64,000 bases of DNA, taken from the NCBI GenBank assembly GCA_963702005.1, contig OY969696.1, forward strand, positions 2,848,001 through 2,912,000, in the 5' to 3' direction. The notes under the pieces were generated by a model, which made no database searches, was not told where the DNA came from, and saw only the letters and a list, made by a program, of their open reading frames with translations. Below, one piece after another: positions 2,733-11,036 of the stretch. Numbering within the stretch: the first letter of the stretch is position 1; each line of letters starts with the position of its first letter. The DNA is from Candidatus Aminicenantes bacterium (GTDB taxonomy: Bacteria; Acidobacteriota; Aminicenantia; Aminicenantales; JAFGBC01). The translations under genes were made by a program, and so were the position numbers.

Positions 2733-3905
2733 TCAGTCGACATGGAGCAGGAATCCTTTGAGATATTCGCTCTCCGGATGGTAAATGTTGACAGGATGGT
2801 CGGGGGCCATCCGATGCTTCTGGAGGATCTTGACCGTCCGGTCCGCCTCGCGCGCGGCCTGGAACAGGACCTGGCGGAAGAGCGCCTCATCCACGAAATG
2901 GGAGCAGGAAAAAGTCAGGAGGAGCCCACCGGGCGGGAGGGCGAGCATGGCCAGACGGTTGATATCCTTGTAGCCGCGGCAGGCCGGGATGACGTCGCTC
3001 TTCTTTTTGGCGAAGGCGGGCGGGTCGAGGATGATGAAATCGTAGTCCAGGTTCTTGCGCCTCAGGAAGGCAAAAACGTCGGCTGCCTCGAATCGGGCCC
3101 GGGACTCGTCCAGCCCGTTGAGGCGGAGGTTCCGCCGGCCGAGCCCGAGGGCCGGCTCCGAAGTATCGACGGCGTCGACCCGGAGAGCGCCCCCCTTGAG
3201 CGCGTAAACGGAAAAGGCGCCCGTGTAGGCGAACGCGTTCAGGACCCGGCGGCCCGGGCTGAACCGAGCGACCAGCCGACGCATCTCGCGCTGGTCGAGG
3301 AAAAAACCCGTTTTCTGGGATCCCTCGATCGCGACCAGGAAGCGGAGTCCGTTTTCGGCGACCTCGACCGGACCGTCCAGCTCGCCCTGAAGCGGCCCTT
3401 CGAAATCGTCGAGCCCCTCCTCGCGGCGCGAGGGCAGGCTCGATTTCTCATAGATGACGCGCGGCTTGAGAAGCCCCCTCAGGATTCCGAGAACGAGAGG
3501 CTTGAGTTTCTCCATGCCCAGGGTCGCGACTTGGAGGACGCAGACGTCGGCGTATTTGTCGACGACCAGCCCCGGCAGGCCGTCCCCTTCGCCGTGGACG
3601 ACGCGGAAAGCGTTCGTGTCCTCGCCGAAAAGCATCCCGCGCAGGGCCCAAGCCCGCTCGATCGTCCGACGGACGGCTTCGTGGGGCGGTTCGGCGCCGA
3701 AGCTGACCATCCGGGCCAGGATCGAGCACTTCGTGTTGATATAGGCGTGCCCCAGAAGCTCGCCTTCGGCGCTCCGCACGGCCAGCAAGCTTCCTTCTTC
3801 AATGCCCGATGGAAGGTGCTTGGCGGCGCCGGAAAAAATCCAATGATGCCGGTTCCGGACGGCTTTGTCTTTGCCTTTATGGAGGACGAGGGCCGATTCG
3901 GTCAT
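2733..3905 (-). CDS. rlmI: 23S rRNA m5C methyltransferase, RlmI/RlmK family
   Basis: HHWIFSG PUA region, GEGDGLPGLVVD, QKTGFFLDQR, ILDPPAF, TFSCS; ATG at 3905 overlaps upstream stop. Confidence 0.85.
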   Translation of the reverse strand: MTESALVLHKGKDKAVRNRHHWIFSGAAKHLPSGIEEGSLLAVRSAEGELLGHAYINTKCSILARMVSFGAEPPHEAVRRTIERAWALRGMLFGEDTNAFRVVHGEGDGLPGLVVDKYADVCVLQVATLGMEKLKPLVLGILRGLLKPRVIYEKSSLPSRREEGLDDFEGPLQGELDGPVEVAENGLRFLVAIEGSQKTGFFLDQREMRRLVARFSPGRRVLNAFAYTGAFSVYALKGGALRVDAVDTSEPALGLGRRNLRLNGLDESRARFEAADVFAFLRRKNLDYDFIILDPPAFAKKKSDVIPACRGYKDINRLAMLALPPGGLLLTFSCSHFVDEALFRQVLFQAAREADRTVKILQKHRMAPDHPVNIYHPESEYLKGFLLHVD

Positions 3906-4288
3906 GAGGACGGCCCCAGAAGCCGGGAGACGATTTCGCGATCGGCCTCCGCGAGGTCGAATCGCCACAGATCCCCGGGCCGGACCCAGCGGATCTCATC
4001 ATGGGAACGAAGCTTGAATTCGCCCGTCCGGTGCTCGACTTCGAAGGCGAGAAGTTCGAAGGGGCCCTCTCGAAAAACGCCCCGGCCGGTGGCGGCCAGC
4101 GGCCCCACCCGGACTTCGATATCGAACTCTTCTCTAAGCTCCCGCTCCAGGCATGTCTCCGGCGTTTCGCCCGGTTCGACCTTTCCCCCCGGGAATTCCC
4201 AGAGGCCCGCGCTCGAGATCCCGGCCTTCCGGCGAGCGATCAAGATCATCCCGTTTCTTCTGAAGAGGGCCGCCGTGACCTGCATCAT
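3902..4288 (-). CDS. NUDIX hydrolase, MutT/NudG-like
   Basis: Nudix box WEFPGGKVEPGETPETCLERELREE; real gene is only the C-terminal 128 aa of ORF 3902..6208. Confidence 0.9.
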   Translation of the reverse strand: MMQVTAALFRRNGMILIARRKAGISSAGLWEFPGGKVEPGETPETCLERELREEFDIEVRVGPLAATGRGVFREGPFELLAFEVEHRTGEFKLRSHDEIRWVRPGDLWRFDLAEADREIVSRLLGPSS

Positions 4289-4360
4289 AAGAGGCTCCCG
4301 GATCAGGATTATAAGACAAGGCCGTCTAAAAGGACACTTTTTTTCGCGGGCCGTCCGTCG

Positions 4361-4389
4361 TTGACTTCCCGACCGCATCACCCTATTAT
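4361..4389 (+). promoter_or_regulatory. Sigma70-like promoter of kinase gene
   Basis: TTGACT (4361-4366), 17 bp, TATTAT (4384-4389); ATG at 4397. Confidence 0.6.
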
Positions 4390-4396
4390 TATCGGC

Positions 4397-7300
4397 ATGG
4401 GGGACGGAGGACGGCTTCAGGTCTGCTCGAGCTGCCGGGCGGAGAATCCCGACGACAGCCGCTTCTGTCGCCAATGCGGCGCGCCGCTCCCCCACCCTCA
4501 TGAGACGCTCCCCTATCCCGTTTCCTCCGCTGAAGCGCACACGACGGCCGCCCCGGCCGCCGCGCCCCACTTCGCCCCCGGCGCCGCCTTCGGCAAGCGC
4601 TACCGGATTATCGAGGAGATTGGAAGCGGCGGCATGGGCCGCGTCTACAAGGCCGAGGACAAAGAGCTGGGGACGACGGTCGCCCTCAAGATGATCCGCC
4701 CCGAGCTCTCCGCCGACCGCGACGTCATCGACCTTTTCAAGAAAGAAATCATCCTGGCCCGCTCCATCTCGCACGAAAACGTCGTCCGCATCCACGACCT
4801 GGGCGAAATCGGCCGGGTCAAATACGTTTCGATGGACTTCATCAAAGGCGAAGACCTGAAGTCCCTGATCCGGCTCTCGGGGCCCCTCTCCGTGGACACG
4901 ACCCTCCAGATCGCGATCCAGGTCGGAGAAGCGCTCCGGGCCGCCCACCGCAAGAACATCGTCCACCAAGACCTCAAGCCCCAGAATATCATGATCGATC
5001 CGGGCGGCCGGGTGTTCGTCACGGATTTCGGGCTGGCGACGCTCAGGGCCGCCGACGGGGCCGCGGGACCGGCGGATGTGGTCGGAACGCCCTTCTACTT
5101 CTCGCCCGAACAGGCCCGGGGCGCGCCCGCCGATCCCCGGTCGGACATCTATTCGTTCGGCGTCGTCGTCTTCGAGATGCTGACCGGACGGGAGCCCTTC
5201 CGGGCCGCTACCGCCGCCGAACTCGCCCGCAAACACGTATCGGAGCCCCCGCCGCTTCCCTCCCGCTTCAATCCCGCCGTGCCGGCGGCCCTGGAGAAGA
5301 TCGTCCTCAAATGCCTGGCTAAAAAGCGGGAGGATCGCTATCAATCCTTCGACGAGATTCTGGCCGATCTTAAAAGGCTCGAGCCCGCCGGACGGGGCAG
5401 GGCGGCGCGGCGCTACGGCGGGAGACTCCTCTGGCTCCTGCCCTCGACTTTGGCGCTCCTGTTTCTGGCCGTCGTCGCCGTCAAGACTTTTCTCCCCAAA
5501 ACGGAGCGCCCCGCCGAGTCCGCTCTCCGCTCGCCCCTTAAGAGGATCTCGGTCGCCGTCCTCGACGCCGTCAACCACACCGGAGATCCTTCGCTGGACT
5601 ACTGGCGGGGGATGATCGAGGACCTGCTGTCCATCGACCTGGCCCAATCCCGCTACTTGGGCGTTCTGCCCGACGATCGGGTCAACCGGATCCTCAAGGA
5701 CATGGGCCGCCTCGACGCCAGCGAGCAAGCGACCGATGTCCTCGACCGGATCGCCGGGGAGGAAGGCGTCGAATATTTCATCCTGCCCAGTTTCGTACGG
5801 GTCGGCGACCGGTACCGGCTCAGCGTCAAAGTCCGCAAGGCAAAGGGGAGCGAGATCTTGGACACGGCTTGGGTCGACGGCCAGGACCTGCTCGTCATGG
5901 TCGACGACCTGACCCGAAAGCTCAAGACGGCCCTTCGGCTGTCCCAGTCCGAGATCGCCGCCGACTACGACCGGGAGCTGGCCCAGATCTCGACGACTTC
6001 GCTCGAAGCGCTCCGCTACTACATGGACGGCAAGCGCCTCTACCTCGACGAGAAATTCCAGGAGAGCAACGAAACCCTCGCCCGGGCGGTAGCCATCGAT
6101 CCGACCTTCGCCCTGGCCTATAAAAAAATGGCCGAGAACTACAACTACCTGGGCGACCTCAACCGAACCCGAGAGCGGATCGGCAAAGCGCTGGCGCTTC
6201 TCGATCACGTCTCGGAGCGGGAGCGCTACATGATTCAGGGATACGCCTCATATACCTTGGACGAGTCGCCGCAAAAAGCCGTCGAAAGCTATCGGCGGCT
6301 CCTCGAGTTTTATCCCAACGACGAGGAGGGGCACGTCCTGCTCGGCTCCATCTACAGGAATTCCGAACAGTGGGACGAGGCCGAACAGGAGTTCGAATAC
6401 GTGCTCGACCTTAACCCGCGGTCCGAATTGGCCATCGAGAACCTGGCCTACATCGACTCCGGGCTGGGACGATACGACAAGGCCATCGGCCTTATCCAGG
6501 CGCAACAGGCCCTCTTCCCCCGCTCCCTGCTGCTTTCCCGGCGCCTGGCTCAACTCGACACGATCACGGGTCGTCTCGATCAAGCGCGTCAAGAGATCGA
6601 TGACCTCCTCCGCACGAACCCCCAAGATTACAGTCATCTCGAACTCGAAGGGAATGTCCTTCAGCTCAAGGGCGATCTCCCGGCCGCCCGCTCCGTCTAT
6701 GAACGGCTCCGGAACGGCCGAAATCCCTCCGGCCGCTGCTTAGGACGGTTCTGGACGGCCCATCTTCTCCTCCTCCAGGGGCGTTTCCAGGAGGCCCGGA
6801 ACGAAGCCGCCTCGGGCCTGGAGGAATCGAAGAAAACCAACCAGATGCCCCAGACGATCAATTTCCGCCTTCTCCTTTCCCGTCTTGAGCTCGAGCAGAG
6901 CCATTGGGACGAGGCGGACGCCTCGGCCCGGACCGCTTATCAGACCGCCGACAAGATTCTCTACTCCCACGAAAAAAAGCAGGCCCTCCAGCTCGAGGGG
7001 CTTGCCCAGGCCGGCGCCGGCCGACTCGCTGAAGCGGAGCGGACCGCCGAGGAGCTCCGCGCCTTGCTCGACCGGACGGGCTGTCCCGCTCATTATAAAT
7101 ATTACGAGGCCCTCCGGGCCGCCATCGCGCTCAAGCGCGGCGCCGCGGCCGAAGCCGTCGGCTGGCAGGAAAAGGCGGTCGCCCGCTTATCCCAGCAGAT
7201 CGACAAATTCGATGATCAAGCTTTATTCTTCGACGGCCTGGGGCATGCCTACGAGGCGGCGGGATCGCCGGCTAAAGCCGTGGCCGTTTACGAAAAACTC

Positions 7301-7507
7301 ATCGCCCTGACGACCGGCCGACTCCGCTGGGGCGATTTATTCGCGCTGGCTTTTTATCGATCGGGCCGGCTCTACGAATCCGGGGGCGTCAAGGACAAGG
7401 CCGTCTCCGCCTATGAAAAGTTCCTGACTCTCTGGCGGCAAGCCAATGCCGGACGTCCCGAGCCCGCCGAGGCGCGGACCCGGCTCAACGCCTTGAGAGG
7501 GTCCTAG
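4397..7507 (+). CDS. Membrane-anchored Ser/Thr kinase: Zn ribbon, kinase, TM, TolB-like domain, TPR repeats
   Basis: CSSC...CRQC; GSGGMGRVY, VALK, HQDLKPQN, DFG, SPE, SDIYSFG; TM LLWLLPSTLALLFLAVVAV; many TPR-like helices. Confidence 0.92.
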   Translation: MGDGGRLQVCSSCRAENPDDSRFCRQCGAPLPHPHETLPYPVSSAEAHTTAAPAAAPHFAPGAAFGKRYRIIEEIGSGGMGRVYKAEDKELGTTVALKMIRPELSADRDVIDLFKKEIILARSISHENVVRIHDLGEIGRVKYVSMDFIKGEDLKSLIRLSGPLSVDTTLQIAIQVGEALRAAHRKNIVHQDLKPQNIMIDPGGRVFVTDFGLATLRAADGAAGPADVVGTPFYFSPEQARGAPADPRSDIYSFGVVVFEMLTGREPFRAATAAELARKHVSEPPPLPSRFNPAVPAALEKIVLKCLAKKREDRYQSFDEILADLKRLEPAGRGRAARRYGGRLLWLLPSTLALLFLAVVAVKTFLPKTERPAESALRSPLKRISVAVLDAVNHTGDPSLDYWRGMIEDLLSIDLAQSRYLGVLPDDRVNRILKDMGRLDASEQATDVLDRIAGEEGVEYFILPSFVRVGDRYRLSVKVRKAKGSEILDTAWVDGQDLLVMVDDLTRKLKTALRLSQSEIAADYDRELAQISTTSLEALRYYMDGKRLYLDEKFQESNETLARAVAIDPTFALAYKKMAENYNYLGDLNRTRERIGKALALLDHVSERERYMIQGYASYTLDESPQKAVESYRRLLEFYPNDEEGHVLLGSIYRNSEQWDEAEQEFEYVLDLNPRSELAIENLAYIDSGLGRYDKAIGLIQAQQALFPRSLLLSRRLAQLDTITGRLDQARQEIDDLLRTNPQDYSHLELEGNVLQLKGDLPAARSVYERLRNGRNPSGRCLGRFWTAHLLLLQGRFQEARNEAASGLEESKKTNQMPQTINFRLLLSRLELEQSHWDEADASARTAYQTADKILYSHEKKQALQLEGLAQAGAGRLAEAERTAEELRALLDRTGCPAHYKYYEALRAAIALKRGAAAEAVGWQEKAVARLSQQIDKFDDQALFFDGLGHAYEAAGSPAKAVAVYEKLIALTTGRLRWGDLFALAFYRSGRLYESGGVKDKAVSAYEKFLTLWRQANAGRPEPAEARTRLNALRGS

Positions 7508-8555
7508 ACGCCAAGAATTTCTCCCGCGCCGCCCTCAACGCTTTCGCGATCCGGCAAGTCCAGCGCGGGATCCGTCCGATCTCGCTCCCCGGCGCCGCCG
7601 CATCCAAGGGACAGATCGCGCAGTCCTCGACTTCGGGACAGGTCAGGCAGGGACCGTCCGGCGTCATGAACCGCGTCATGCGGAGCGAGGCATATCGGGC
7701 CGCGACCTCGGGATGGACTCTCTGCCCTGAACGGACGAACCGCTCGACTCGACCGAAAGAATAGGAACGGGCCTCCCGGGAGGTCGACCTCCCGGGGAAA
7801 TGGTCGATGAAGAGGTGACAGCCCCAAACCGTTCCGTCCGGAGCGACGGCGATCCTGTTCGCGCCGCCGCCGCAGGCGAAAATTCCCCTCCCCCGGACCG
7901 GCCGGAATTCGGCCAGCGGAACGTGTCCCGTCTTTTTTCTCCATGCGCCGGCGAAGCGCCGGACCGCCGCCAGCTCATCCCCCAGCGCCGTTAGGGCGGC
8001 CCCGGACCAGGGCTCCAGGTTCGAGAAAGCGAGATGGATGTCTCTGACGCCGAGCTCATGAATAAGCCGCACGGAGCCGGACAAATAGCGGACGGTTTTT
8101 GGAGTGAACACGGAGTTCGTCTCGACCCGAATCTCAGGGGCGTCGACCAAGCGCTCCAGCGCGGGCAGGACCGTTGCCGTGCTCTCCTGTTCGCGGCCGA
8201 CGTGCTGGGCAAGACCGTCGAAAGACACAAGCAAGCGAAATCGGTGATCGCGGAAAAACGCGAGAATGTCATCCGTGATCAGGCTGCCGTTTGTCGTCAG
8301 CCCGAACCGGATTCGGCGGCCTCCGTTCTTATTTTCCACGGCCGCGACCGCCCGGCGGATGAGGTCGAACGCGACGAGCGGCTCTCCTCCGTAGAAATGG
8401 ATTTCGCTTCGGACGGCCAGATGGGGAAGGAAGACATCCAAGGCCCGGTCCAAGACGGCGGGCGTCATCGTCTGCCGGCCCCGAAGCTGATAGCAATAGG
8501 AACAGCGGAAATTACACCGTTCGGTCAGATAGAGCAGAAGGGTTGAGAATTCCAT
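7485..8555 (-). CDS. Radical SAM/SPASM domain protein, probable peptide maturase
   Basis: CNFRCSYC, FYGGEPL, TTNG, VSFDG; SPASM cysteines CGGG...GTVWGCH...CLTCPEVEDCAIC...WTC. Confidence 0.9.
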   Translation of the reverse strand: MEFSTLLLYLTERCNFRCSYCYQLRGRQTMTPAVLDRALDVFLPHLAVRSEIHFYGGEPLVAFDLIRRAVAAVENKNGGRRIRFGLTTNGSLITDDILAFFRDHRFRLLVSFDGLAQHVGREQESTATVLPALERLVDAPEIRVETNSVFTPKTVRYLSGSVRLIHELGVRDIHLAFSNLEPWSGAALTALGDELAAVRRFAGAWRKKTGHVPLAEFRPVRGRGIFACGGGANRIAVAPDGTVWGCHLFIDHFPGRSTSREARSYSFGRVERFVRSGQRVHPEVAARYASLRMTRFMTPDGPCLTCPEVEDCAICPLDAAAPGSEIGRIPRWTCRIAKALRAAREKFLASRTLSRR

Positions 8556-8594
8556 TCGGTCGCGGGGCGGCCGCGGCGGCCCTTCCAACGGAAA

Positions 8595-8693
8595 TACTAA
8601 GCCGGGCGGAATATAGTTGACTCCATATTTCTTTATCGCCCGGCTAGTACTCGGGGAGCGGCAAGGATTATGCAAAATATATACTGCTCCCCG
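8595..8693. other. Two adjacent GC-stem hairpins between small ORFs and radical SAM gene
   Basis: AGCCGGGCG 8600-8608 / CGCCCGGCT 8637-8645; CGGGGAGC 8652-8659 / GCTCCCCG 8686-8693; AT-rich loops. Confidence 0.65.
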
Positions 8694-8711
8694 TAGTAAC
8701 TATGTTTCAGA

Positions 8712-8948
8712 TCAGCGCACGGTCCGGCGCGGCAAACTTCCCTGACACATGTCCCCGGCCTTCAGGTCGGCGAGATTGCCCACGGAATTGATAATTCCGC
8801 CGCAGGCTTTTCGCGCTTCCTTGTAAACCTTGAAGAGCGGATCGCCGGCGGGGGGCGCCTTGACTTTTTCCAGAAAAGTCGCGATGGCATCCAACCCCTT
8901 TACGAGCTCCGCCGGATAAGGATGTTCTGTGATCGGTCTTTTCGCCAT
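8712..8948 (-). CDS. 78-aa small protein, candidate RiPP precursor 2
   Basis: AAGGAGG RBS upstream of ATG; similar to 9007..9228; ends AGDMCQGSLPRRTVR. Confidence 0.75.
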   Translation of the reverse strand: MAKRPITEHPYPAELVKGLDAIATFLEKVKAPPAGDPLFKVYKEARKACGGIINSVGNLADLKAGDMCQGSLPRRTVR

Positions 8949-9006
8949 GGAAACCCTCCTTGTCTCCGATTCCTCTGGACAGGCCGCGATCAGCCCGCCT
9001 CGCCCC

Positions 9007-9228
9007 TCAGCGCCGCGGAAGTCCGGTCGGACAGGGACCGCCTTTGTCTTTACACAAGAGCTTGACGAGTACGGCGCAGGCGGCTTCCGCTTTCAATTGG
9101 AGACGGGCCAGCGCGGGCGGCAACTCGATGTGAGCGGCCTTTAGCTCGCGCAAGAACGCATCAATATCCCCTAGAAGCTGCGCGACGCTCACCCGGTCAC
9201 CCTTAGGATCGAATCTCTTGATAGGCAT
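9007..9228 (-). CDS. 73-aa small protein, candidate RiPP precursor 1
   Basis: AAGGAGG RBS (9234-9240) before ATG at 9228 (MPIKRF...); ends KGGPCPTGLPRR; paralog of 8712..8948. Confidence 0.75.
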   Translation of the reverse strand: MPIKRFDPKGDRVSVAQLLGDIDAFLRELKAAHIELPPALARLQLKAEAACAVLVKLLCKDKGGPCPTGLPRR

Positions 9229-9352
9229 GCTCCCCTCCTTACAAGGATATCGTAGCAAAGACGGTCCTGGGAAATAAAGCGGTATTTTTCGCGTCAATCC
9301 TAAACGTTCAACCGCCTTTTTCCGTATAGGATAAGTGGGGACAAGCACGAAC

Positions 9353-10279
9353 ATGGCCGGCAGCGAACAAAACGTCGTCGAGGTCGAAAGCCTCCGAAAA
9401 AGCTACGGAACGGTGACCGCCGTCGCCGGCATATCTTTCGCTGTCCGGCGGGGCGAAATCTTCGGGCTGGTCGGCCCCAACGGCGCCGGCAAGACGACGA
9501 CCGTCGAATGCCTGGAGGGACTCCGGCGTCCCGACGACGGCCGGGTCCGCCTTCTCGGCTGCGATCCTCAGCGCGAGGGCCGCAGCCTCAGGGAGCGGCT
9601 CGGCATCCAACTCCAGGAATCGGAACTCCAGGCCCGGATCAAGGTCTGGGAGGCTTTGGACCTCTACGCTTCTTTTTACAGCCGGTCCATCGACTGGCGA
9701 CCTCTCATCGCCCAACTCGGGCTCGGGGACAAGGCCGAAACGCCGTTCGCCAAATTATCGGGCGGGCAGAAGCAGAGGCTGTTCGTGGCCCTGGCCCTCG
9801 TCAACGACCCCGACCTCGTTTTCCTCGACGAGCTGACGACCGGGCTCGACCCCCAGGCCCGGCGCACGATCTGGGACCTCGTCCGTTCGGTCCGGGACAG
9901 GGGGAAAACGGTCGTCCTGACAACCCACTTCATGGAAGAAGCGGAACGGCTCTGCGACCGCGTCGCGATCATGGATCGAGGCGGCCTGGTCGCCCTGGAC
10001 ACACCGGAAAACCTCATCCGCGGCCTGAACGCCGAAAACAGGGTCGTGTTCGTCCCCGATCCGGGCTTCGAGGCGCGGCTCCTCGAGTCCTGCCCGGGCG
10101 TCACACGGATCGAGGCGTCGGCCGGACGGGTCATCGTCTACGGCCACGGCGAGCGGCTCGTCGCCGACGTCGTGGATTTCATCATCGCCAAGGGCTTCCG
10201 GTTCCGGGACTTAAGGACCGAGCAGGCTTCGCTCGAGGACGTCTTCCTGGCCCTGACCGGCCGCGAGATCAGGGAATGA
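9353..10279 (+). CDS. ABC-2 type exporter ATP-binding subunit
   Basis: GPNGAGKTT, LSGGQKQR, FLDE, TTH, C-terminal SLEDVFL. Confidence 0.95.
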   Translation: MAGSEQNVVEVESLRKSYGTVTAVAGISFAVRRGEIFGLVGPNGAGKTTTVECLEGLRRPDDGRVRLLGCDPQREGRSLRERLGIQLQESELQARIKVWEALDLYASFYSRSIDWRPLIAQLGLGDKAETPFAKLSGGQKQRLFVALALVNDPDLVFLDELTTGLDPQARRTIWDLVRSVRDRGKTVVLTTHFMEEAERLCDRVAIMDRGGLVALDTPENLIRGLNAENRVVFVPDPGFEARLLESCPGVTRIEASAGRVIVYGHGERLVADVVDFIIAKGFRFRDLRTEQASLEDVFLALTGREIRE

Positions 10280-10292
10280 GGAGAGCGCGGAT

Positions 10293-11036
10293 ATGCGCGG
10301 ACTCTGGAAGCTGACCTGGACCGAGATCAAGCTGTTCCTCCGCGAACCCTATTCGACCTTTTTCACCCTGGCTTTCCCGCTCATGCTCCTCTTCCTGTTC
10401 GGGTCCATCTACGGCAACAAACCGACGCCCTTCTTCAACGGACACGGCTCGGTGGACGTCCTCCTGCCCTGCTACGCCGCGCTCCTCATCGGGAACTCCG
10501 GGCTTCTCTCGATGACTATCTACATGGCCGTTTACCGGGAGAGGGGCGTCCTGCGCCGCCTCCACGCCACCCCCCTCAAGCCCCTGACCGTGCTGGGCGC
10601 CCAAGTCCTGGTCGTTTTTCTGATGTGCACGCTGGGCCTCGGCCTCCTCATCGCCGCCGCCAAGCTCGTCTACGGCTTGAAGTTCGCGGGCGACCCGCTT
10701 TCCGTCCTGGGCGCCTACATCTTGAGCTGCCTCGGTATTTTCGCGCTGGGGTTCGTCCTGGCCAGCGTCCTGCCCACGGCCCGGACCGCCCAGGCCGTCG
10801 CCATGGCCCTGTTCTATCCGATGATGTTCCTGTCCGGAGCGGCCATGCCCAAGGAAATCCTCCCGCTGACGATCCGGCGCGTCGCTCGCTTCCTTCCCCT
10901 GACCCACGTCGTCGATCTTCTGCGCGGATTGTGGCTGGGGGACGTGTGGAGCCGGCACCTGACCGAAGTCGCGGCCCTGGCCGGTTTGTTCGTCGTCTGC
11001 GTCGCCGTCTCCCTCAAGACTTTTCGCTGGGAATAG
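10293..11036 (+). CDS. ABC-2 type exporter permease
   Basis: About six TM segments, RERGVLRRL..TP, FLSG..MP, LPLTH, ends FRWE. Confidence 0.92.
   Translation: MRGLWKLTWTEIKLFLREPYSTFFTLAFPLMLLFLFGSIYGNKPTPFFNGHGSVDVLLPCYAALLIGNSGLLSMTIYMAVYRERGVLRRLHATPLKPLTVLGAQVLVVFLMCTLGLGLLIAAAKLVYGLKFAGDPLSVLGAYILSCLGIFALGFVLASVLPTARTAQAVAMALFYPMMFLSGAAMPKEILPLTIRRVARFLPLTHVVDLLRGLWLGDVWSRHLTEVAALAGLFVVCVAVSLKTFRWE

Follow-up and report, generated by a model that had tools for sequence, protein, structure and literature searches.

A 64,000-nt stretch of DNA from a Candidatus Aminicenantes bacterium (assembly GCA_963702005.1, contig OY969696.1, positions 2,848,001–2,912,000; hereafter the window) carries three co-oriented genes on its minus strand: two small open reading frames (ORFs), ORF A and ORF B, and a gene for a radical S-adenosylmethionine (SAM) enzyme with a SPASM domain, hereafter rSAM (Table 1). 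The small proteins are probable precursors, and the enzyme their candidate maturase, in a family resembling ribosomally synthesised peptides that are modified post-translationally (RiPPs). An earlier note made from the sequence had described this layout, with both ORFs bearing ribosome binding sites directly upstream of the rSAM/SPASM gene, and every element of it is present. A Shine-Dalgarno (SD) site, AAGGAGGG, precedes the ATG of both ORFs by 3–6 nt; the SD of ORF A reads AAGGAGGGG at 9232–9240 and that of ORF B AAGGAGGG at 8954–8961. The spacer between A and B is 58 nt long and that between B and the rSAM gene 156 nt. Each protein has a cysteine in its tail, Cys66 in A (C-terminus CPTGLPRR) and Cys68 in B (C-terminus CQGSLPRRTVR).

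Table 1. Coordinates of the features discussed (window positions, except for L057 and L064, which are numbered within their own loci).
Feature	Position	Strand	Description
ORF A	9010–9228 (stop 9007–9009)	minus	73 aa; candidate precursor; predicted helical-hairpin leader and C-terminal core G-P-C-P-T-G-L-P-R-R
ORF B	8715–8948 (stop 8712–8714)	minus	78 aa; candidate precursor, paralogue of A; core G-D-M-C-Q-G-S-L-P-R-R-T-V-R
Radical SAM/SPASM gene	7488–8555 (stop 7485–7487)	minus	356 aa; candidate maturase without a RiPP recognition element
Stretch from B stop to rSAM start	8556–8714	minus	159 nt (B stop codon and 156-nt spacer); two strong predicted RNA hairpins
Membrane sensor	4001–7507	plus	1168 codons; Zn-ribbon, Ser/Thr kinase, one predicted transmembrane helix, C-terminal tetratricopeptide repeat domain
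ABC ATPase and ABC-2 permease	9335–10279 and 10293–11036	plus	PF00005 and PF01061; divergent from ORF A
L057 multi-core precursor	235–705	plus	six copies of the ten-residue G-C-E-G-G-K-P-V-I-K with 8-residue spacers
L064 multi-core precursor	3621–3887		two copies of the Cys core

The relationship between A and B is not visible to simple searches: pairwise BLASTP gave no alignment at E ≤ 100, and a word-indexed homologue search with A recovered only A itself. Closer relatives of each exist. ORF B has four homologues at 71–85% identity, one of them in a record named Candidatus Aminicenantes (a look-up of B in the ESM Atlas gave no usable match), and two A-type relatives (L007:368–598 and P0037; alignment A4) are 45–47% identical to A. 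Profile-to-profile comparison with hhalign of 3 A-type against 7 B-type sequences returned a probability of 97.6% and an E-value of 3e-12 over 69 columns. Moreover, a hidden Markov model (HMM) of the family built without A- or B-type rows scored A at 17.7 bits and B at 18.7 bits, whereas among 500 shuffles of each sequence the top scores were 9.0 and 5.6 bits. From the profile match and the leave-out scores together, the two sequences are diverged paralogues, as the earlier note had claimed, and the three shared motifs that it quoted are all found in the A and B translations.

We then looked for the same arrangement in related genomes. At E ≤ 1e-20, rSAM homologues were found in 19 of 61 genomes of the same order (own genome counted), at 26 distinct loci, 24 of which have upstream sequence. 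All 24 carry a same-strand ORF of 53–114 aa within 560 nt upstream, with an SD site and a cysteine in the last 22 residues, and three loci have two such ORFs. The position of this cysteine was among the selection criteria for this first set of peptides (alignment A1, 27 sequences). Searched against the 4.3-Mb genome of origin at E ≤ 1, the A1 model matched exactly three places: A, B and one ORF directly upstream of the only other rSAM gene of this family in the genome, so that each match lies directly upstream of a family rSAM gene.

A wider set comprised 80 loci, one genome per GTDB species, with the closest rSAMs in 41 (L052–L092) and more distant ones in 39 (L093–L131). The peptide HMM matched at 20 of the 41 close-clade loci and at none of the 39 distant ones. 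A rule-based scan of the close-clade loci without a match (L086 and L089 left out) yielded an ORF that looked family-like by eye in 10 of 19 cases and nothing convincing in 7, the remaining 2 having almost no upstream sequence. In one subclade (L073 and L075–L078) the peptide gene is divergent from the rSAM gene rather than co-oriented with it. Among 1.84 billion representative proteins, a profile scan gave 67 matches at E ≤ 1e-3 and 12 at E ≤ 1e-10; some of the 67 are the model's own members, and all but two are 42–110 aa long. One protein, P0023 (345 aa), has the family peptide at residues 272–342 behind an unrelated N-terminal part and probably reflects read-through in the gene call, not a genuine fusion. 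So far the family is seen mainly in metagenome-assembled genomes of Candidatus Aminicenantes and the Acidobacteriota.

These peptides do not fall into curated families. Against Pfam (a copy with its newest models from 2025) and NCBIfam 20.0, the 27 peptides gave no credible match at E ≤ 1, only scattered single matches to unrelated models (best E 0.01), and A and B themselves matched no family in either library at E ≤ 1. The scan presumably covers the Nif11, NHLP, SCIFF, PqqA and mycofactocin precursor models, insofar as the libraries include them. Peptide cluster members that we looked up carried no name or were called 'hypothetical protein'. The earlier note had staked its interpretation on two expectations that could be examined in silico, namely that rSAM homologues would have such neighbours and that the peptides would lie outside known families; all the tests of this kind that it named came out in favour of its interpretation.

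AlphaFold2, run on B with 30 aligned relatives, predicted helices at residues 13–28 and 37–56 (predicted local distance difference test score, pLDDT, about 85) and a disordered tail at 57–78 that contains the cysteine (mean pLDDT 68.5); across the family, two predicted helices are followed by a disordered tail with one invariant cysteine. This agrees with the helical-hairpin leader proposed in the earlier note. The family-wide feature is a single cysteine about 9 residues from the C-terminus: it occupies one aligned column in 96 of the 99 unique sequences, the C-termini of the remaining three being aberrant, and the stretch that follows it has a median length of 9 residues (range 6–50). Around this cysteine (n = 96), Gly is enriched at −3 (42 sequences), +2 (26) and +3 (31), Pro at +1 (50) and +5 (37), while positions +6 and +7 are enriched in Ile or Arg; the core consensus is G-x-x-C-P-G-G-x-P-[I/R]-[I/R], which in A and B reads C-x-x-G/S-L-P-R-R. 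Two features that had been proposed as shared signatures proved more local. The cysteine of the central A-x-x-A-C is invariant only within the A and B groups, and the corresponding family column is mostly Ala or Leu inside helix 2; likewise, the LPRR tail is found in the A and B groups and a few relatives but is not a feature of the whole family. Thus the earlier picture of an undescribed family in which a hairpin leader presents a Cys core or an LPRR tail is supported for the family, the predicted hairpin and the cysteine, and the LPRR element applies to a subclade.

In several relatives the cysteine-bearing segment is repeated behind a single leader: L057 has six tandem Cys cores, L064 two and P0065 three, and P0044, P0050, P0053 and P0072 have two or three each. 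Because the Cys unit alone is repeated, this arrangement marks it as the part acted upon, and tandem repetition of a core is a typical RiPP feature. With small genes beside the enzyme at 24 of 24 loci, a predicted hairpin followed by a disordered core, and multi-core variants, the family fits the genetic part of the general definition of a RiPP: a gene-encoded leader and core beside a probable modifying enzyme.

The enzyme itself is a clear radical SAM protein. Its longest frame, 7485–8675, opens with TTG; the conserved start is the ATG at 8555, and the longer frame is unsupported because all 16 aligned homologues begin at this same Met. PF04055 (Radical_SAM) matches with 58.6 bits (cutoff 29.5, E 1e-15), and the superfamily-defining C14-x3-C18-x2-C21 is invariant in 16/16 homologues, as are seven further cysteines (C228, C246, C303, C306, C312, C315 and C334). 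The SPASM seven-cysteine motif is given as CX9-15GX4C-gap-CX2CX5CX3C-gap-C (PMC6231123, excerpt). The enzyme's pattern of C228, G241-x4-C246, C303-x2-C306-x5-C312-x2-C315 and C334 reproduces all seven, at spacings slightly off the motif (x17 before the second cysteine, x2 before the last of the four). The protein starts 13 residues before its CX3CX2C motif, and homologues start at most 21 residues further upstream. With so few extra N-terminal residues and the seven cysteines in place, the clade thus has a full SPASM motif and no RiPP recognition element (RRE). Nor was a separate RRE-like gene conserved nearby in a neighbourhood set of 21 loci, in which ORFs were clustered over up to ~17 kb around 20 homologous loci and the window.

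The best NCBIfam match of the enzyme is the PapB-family ranthipeptide maturase model NF047865 (124.2 bits, cutoff 340, E 6e-36, residues 3–272), followed by models of other peptide maturases. The best sequence match in the PDB is CteB (5wgg, E 2e-17), aligned only from CteB residue 98. An AlphaFold2 model of the enzyme (pLDDT 89.5) again retrieved CteB first in Foldseek (5why/5wgg, E 9e-19, query-normalised TM-score, TMq, 0.76–0.77), then the anaerobic sulfatase-maturating enzyme (anSME; E 3e-16, TMq 0.75–0.76, target-normalised TM-score, TMt, 0.74), then ChlB, TigE and SuiB. ChlB is a cyclophane synthase (PMC12912966, excerpt); chemistry of that type was set aside for the present family, since ChlB is a fold neighbour but the peptide cores contain no conserved aromatic residue. 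In anSME, auxiliary cluster I (Aux I) is ligated by four cysteines, Cys255/261/276/330, whereas in CteB Aux I offers an open site, to which a substrate cysteine binds, and the seven-cysteine AlbA has been proposed to have one too (PMC6231123, excerpt). The presence of seven rather than eight invariant SPASM cysteines fits the open pattern of CteB and AlbA over the fully ligated one of anSME. On these residue counts, the pattern suggests thioether rather than formylglycine formation; a non-cysteine ligand of Aux I is possible.

We also modelled the enzyme together with B, SAM and three 4Fe-4S clusters. The predicted complex supports the pairing weakly, with a median score of 0.52 (runs at 0.68, 0.02 and 0.52), as compared to 0.01 for the best of 3 controls. 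Of 80 solved complexes, 58 reach the mark used for such predictions, and so do 2 of 110 mismatched pairs; at scores ≤0.60, only 7 of the 80 reach it, together with both mismatches. The runs had at least 3% of contacts in agreement, and the partner had a pLDDT of at least 55.

Besides the rSAM gene, the neighbourhood set revealed one cluster common to the loci, a conserved membrane protein with tetratricopeptide repeats (TPRs) that the earlier note had overlooked. This protein, hereafter the sensor, is adjacent in 20 of 21 loci, the exception being a 4.7-kb contig. In the window, the rSAM gene converges on the sensor ORF and overlaps its 3' end. Pfam domains fall at residues 142–163 (Zn_Ribbon), 201–454 (Pkinase) and 754–1143 (TPRs), with a transmembrane (TM) helix at 476–494. 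Alignments with paralogues begin only at residue ~132–140, which probably places the true start near codon 133. The sensor comes in two forms. The long form (1026–1168 aa) combines a Zn-ribbon and a Ser/Thr kinase with one TM helix and TPR repeats. It lies convergent just downstream of the rSAM gene at 9 loci, that of the window among them, and upstream on the same strand at 1. The short form (about 600 aa; same-strand upstream, 10 loci) has a short N-terminal domain, one TM helix and TPRs, and its N-terminal domain gave sub-threshold matches to HTH_17, a helix-turn-helix (HTH) model, in 2 of 4 proteins tested.

In 18 of the 19 proteins examined, topology prediction puts one TM helix between the kinase or HTH-like domain and the TPR part, which would place the TPR part outside the cytoplasm and the kinase or HTH-like domain within it. 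The TPR protein was considered as a cytoplasmic substitute for an RRE and is disfavoured, since the TM helix separates its TPR part from the cytoplasmic domain. Sensor class and peptide type run together: among loci L032–L051 and the window, every one of the 10 short-form loci has the same peptide subfamily, while the 10 kinase loci have different ones, a match that is suggestive only, because related genomes are not independent samples. GTDB-wide, a sensor homologue was present at 22 of 41 close-clade loci as compared to 1 of 39 distant loci, and eight loci (L064, L067, L072, L073 and L075–L078) have a peptide and no sensor within the locus. The genome of origin holds 29 kinase matches, 8 of them aligned to near the query C-terminus (7 besides the window gene), against just two rSAM genes of the family, so that the linkage goes in one direction, from rSAM to sensor. 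Elsewhere in this genome, full-length paralogues of the Zn-ribbon/kinase/TPR sensor form tandem arrays of three (G000:C1:3861760–3871138) and two (1068784–1076021), one with in-frame stops. We infer that the sensor either senses the exported or matured peptide or controls the operon.

A further peculiarity concerns rSAM genes of the short-sensor subfamily, including the paralogue in the genome of origin. In eight loci from eight genomes (L002, L016, L018, L021, L025, L028, L029 and L074), a run of nine T (T9; T8 in L028) breaks the gene at one shared codon, about residue 41/42. If the frame slips by −1, or the transcript gains one U, the conserved V-F-F-L-P-x-L of intact homologues is read again; these homologues have no such run or an in-frame T8. 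The T run of the own-genome paralogue lies outside the window (L002:2400–2415; G000:C1, about 3624330). Four runs (at most four samples, two studies) have Logan contigs across it, none with an indel; in this genome it is therefore not an assembly artefact. From its sequence, the run looks like a candidate site of programmed frameshifting or transcriptional slippage in a maturase gene. In a contig of one related strain (run X2), the downstream part of the paralogous gene has a 1-nt deletion (L002:1605), which might reflect decay of that copy in that strain.

Together, these data lead us to favour, as the probable reading, that A and B are precursors of an undescribed, RRE-independent RiPP-like family modified by the rSAM/SPASM enzyme at the Cys core, most likely with a thioether. 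Its parts differ in strength: from the sequence evidence we hold with reasonable confidence that A and B are substrates modified at or around the cysteine, and we regard a thioether specifically as an even call. Substrate role, type of modification, export and signalling are all points that we infer from the comparisons above. In the mechanism that we propose, A and B would be translated from their strong ribosome sites as a leader of about 55 residues, folded as a two-helix hairpin, and a disordered core of 10–20 residues with one invariant cysteine. Since the enzyme has no RRE, substrate recognition must differ from that of textbook RiPPs, and the hairpin leader presumably docks directly on the enzyme. 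The core cysteine would then approach or ligate an open site on Aux I, as proposed for CteB and AlbA, and the 5'-deoxyadenosyl radical would take a hydrogen atom from a residue a few positions downstream, whereupon a thioether ring would close. The expected product is one small intramolecular ring linking the cysteine sulfur to a carbon of a residue 3–7 positions downstream.

Several observations weigh against this interpretation. The cysteine was a selection criterion, so its invariance in alignment A1 arises partly by construction; the independent HMM searches reduce this concern and do not remove it, and related genomes are not independent samples. Pfam SPASM (PF13186) stays below threshold (12.9 vs 21.5 bits, E 0.14), the enzyme scores far below every curated NCBIfam cutoff, and anSME matches its fold almost as well as CteB does. 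Support for the substrate role from the predicted complex with B is weak, one of its three runs having scored 0.02. Across the 21 loci, neither a protease nor an exporter is conserved to a distance of about 6 kb, which leaves leader removal and secretion unsupported, and the product may stay a full-length cytoplasmic protein. Finally, no acceptor-like residue is invariant in the core, position +4 being L, T, R, S, I, K or V. That no acceptor side chain is conserved would fit attack on a backbone alpha-carbon, as in sactionines, or an acceptor position that tolerates different side chains. Equally, it is the chief reason to consider a different modification, in which the peptides are substrates but the cysteine alone is altered without a cross-link, by conversion to formylglycine as in anSME or by some other single-residue change, for instance epimerisation or dehydrogenation. 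We consider this unlikely. It draws on the cysteine being the only invariant residue, on anSME as the second-best fold match and, like this enzyme, a protein of about 370 aa with no RRE, and on a loose resemblance of the Pro and Arg enriched downstream of the cysteine to the sulfatase motif C-x-P-x-R. In the peptides, however, Pro stands at +1 and +5 and not at +2, and the anSME family HMM scores much lower than that of PapB (53 vs 124 bits). The anSME Aux I cluster moreover has four Cys ligands (PMC6231123, excerpt), against only seven conserved SPASM cysteines in this clade.

In another reading, the small proteins would not be substrates at all but accessory or regulatory partners, either adaptors standing in for the RRE or modulators of the kinase or HTH-like sensor, with the rSAM target elsewhere, for example in the sensor. 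In favour of this, the enzyme is RRE-less and its surroundings have no conserved separate RRE gene, the sensor is conserved better than any other neighbour, neither a protease nor an exporter is conserved, and the helical part of the peptides is better conserved than a typical leader. Yet the sole invariant residue sits outside the helices in the disordered tail, tandem duplication of the Cys core behind one leader is hard to reconcile with an adaptor, and the eight close-clade loci named above have the peptide without the sensor; on balance we think this explanation improbable. That the two ORFs are chance frames, with a coincidental likeness of motifs, might have been argued from the many spurious ORFs in GC-rich DNA and from the failure of BLASTP and word-based searches to connect A and B. 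The conservation data refute it, leaving it next to no probability: the frames recur with strong SD sites in many genomes, the profile-profile match has an E-value of 3e-12, the family has 67 representatives database-wide, and all three own-genome matches lie beside family rSAM genes. Returning to A and B as RiPP-like precursors, one extension is that the locus forms a new peptide-signalling module, in which a C-terminal peptide cyclised by the rSAM enzyme would be cut from its hairpin precursor and released, read by the extracytoplasmic TPR part of the sensor and relayed through the kinase or HTH-like domain, with the maturase gated by T9 slippage in the short-sensor subfamily. This we regard as speculative and rather unlikely.

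The remaining features of the locus bear on its expression and surroundings. The stretch between B and the rSAM gene folds with a minimum free energy of −59.6 kcal/mol (z −3.4; none of 200 shuffles was equally stable), and its hairpins may form a processing or attenuation element between precursor and maturase. The hairpins have no U-tract terminator on the minus strand, and an Rfam scan of 7300–9500 gave no match at E ≤ 1. The same-genus relative G001 has just 55 nt at the corresponding place and hence does not conserve the element. A sigma-70 promoter scan of the locus found none, and four terminator-like sites, all on the plus strand, are within the number expected from shuffles. Across a gap of 106 nt from ORF A lies a divergent ABC ATPase/ABC-2 permease pair. 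It is unique to the window locus, the other 20 loci showing no such conserved neighbour; the idea of a dedicated exporter was rejected on this ground and is kept as a weak possibility. Sequence-archive matches to the locus came from 11 runs in 5 studies, all of them DNA contigs and each covering less than half of the sampled words.

Enzymes of this kind beside Cys-bearing peptides are already familiar. What sets this family apart is that the peptides have no match in current curated libraries and that the system is closely associated with membrane TPR proteins, either sensor kinases or HTH-like, in a phylum for which we know of no cultured representatives and almost no signalling biology. Our literature search on radical SAM RiPPs, ranthipeptides, sactipeptides or SPASM in Aminicenantes found nothing among the papers listed, and the main text of a radical SAM compendium contains no mention of Acidobacteri*, tetratricopeptide, helical or kinase, although its supplements might list the clade (PMC10288494). 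Given its maturase without an RRE and its long predicted hairpin leader, the family may show a new form of RiPP substrate recognition, and genome mining based on the RRE would probably miss it. The minimal core, one invariant cysteine with variable neighbours, could also provide a compact tag for enzymatic peptide cyclisation.

Among characterised systems, PapB/PapA (freyrasin, a ranthipeptide) is the closest by curated HMM. PapB is likewise an rSAM/SPASM maturase, in both systems a Cys-centred short motif can be tandemly repeated, and in both a small ring over about 4 residues is plausible. PapB, however, has an N-terminal RRE at residues 1–86 and requires Cys-Xn-Asp/Glu (PMC12715619, excerpt). 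The window enzyme misses the family cutoff and has no RRE, and its peptides have no conserved acidic residue after the cysteine; the leader is a predicted helical hairpin of 55 aa, as opposed to a short, linear one. CteB/CteA (SCIFF, thermocellin) supplies the top PDB match by both sequence and fold. SCIFF precursors have six cysteines in about 45 aa; the window peptides have one invariant cysteine and match no SCIFF model. The alignment with CteB begins only after the CteB RRE and TIGR03974 scores 79 bits against a cutoff of 425, yet the seven-cysteine pattern is compatible with the open Aux I site of CteB (PMC6231123, excerpt).

The anSMEs are of similar size, also have no RRE and act on a cysteine in an unfolded peptide segment. 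They differ in having eight cluster-ligating SPASM cysteines against seven here (PMC6231123, excerpt), in the score of the window enzyme on TIGR03942 (52.8 bits, cutoff 349.45) and in their substrates, which are sulfatases rather than dedicated 70-aa peptides encoded next door. QhpD/QhpC and CrpC/CrpA show that rSAM/SPASM enzymes can form Cys thioethers on small proteins and not only on short secreted peptides; the window enzyme scores 81 bits against QhpD, and CrpC, which has a predicted RRE, installs ranthionine cross-links on a protein substrate (PMC13692751, excerpt). The QhpC and CrpA substrates are Cys-rich with multiple links, and no match at the family level exists. With the RRNPP circuits (Rgg/SHP with rSAM-modified streptide), the locus shares a peptide gene, an rSAM maturase and a TPR regulator, an analogy in manner of working only. 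RRNPP receptors are cytoplasmic HTH-TPR proteins of about 300 aa, whereas here a Ser/Thr kinase or HTH-like protein with a single membrane pass carries the TPR domain, at a predicted extracytoplasmic position. In its working the system thus resembles the ranthipeptide and sactipeptide systems (PapB, CteB) and is best placed with the rSAM/SPASM-modified Cys peptides, but it stands outside the PapB and CteB families by HMM cutoff, by RRE and by substrate motif or precursor family.

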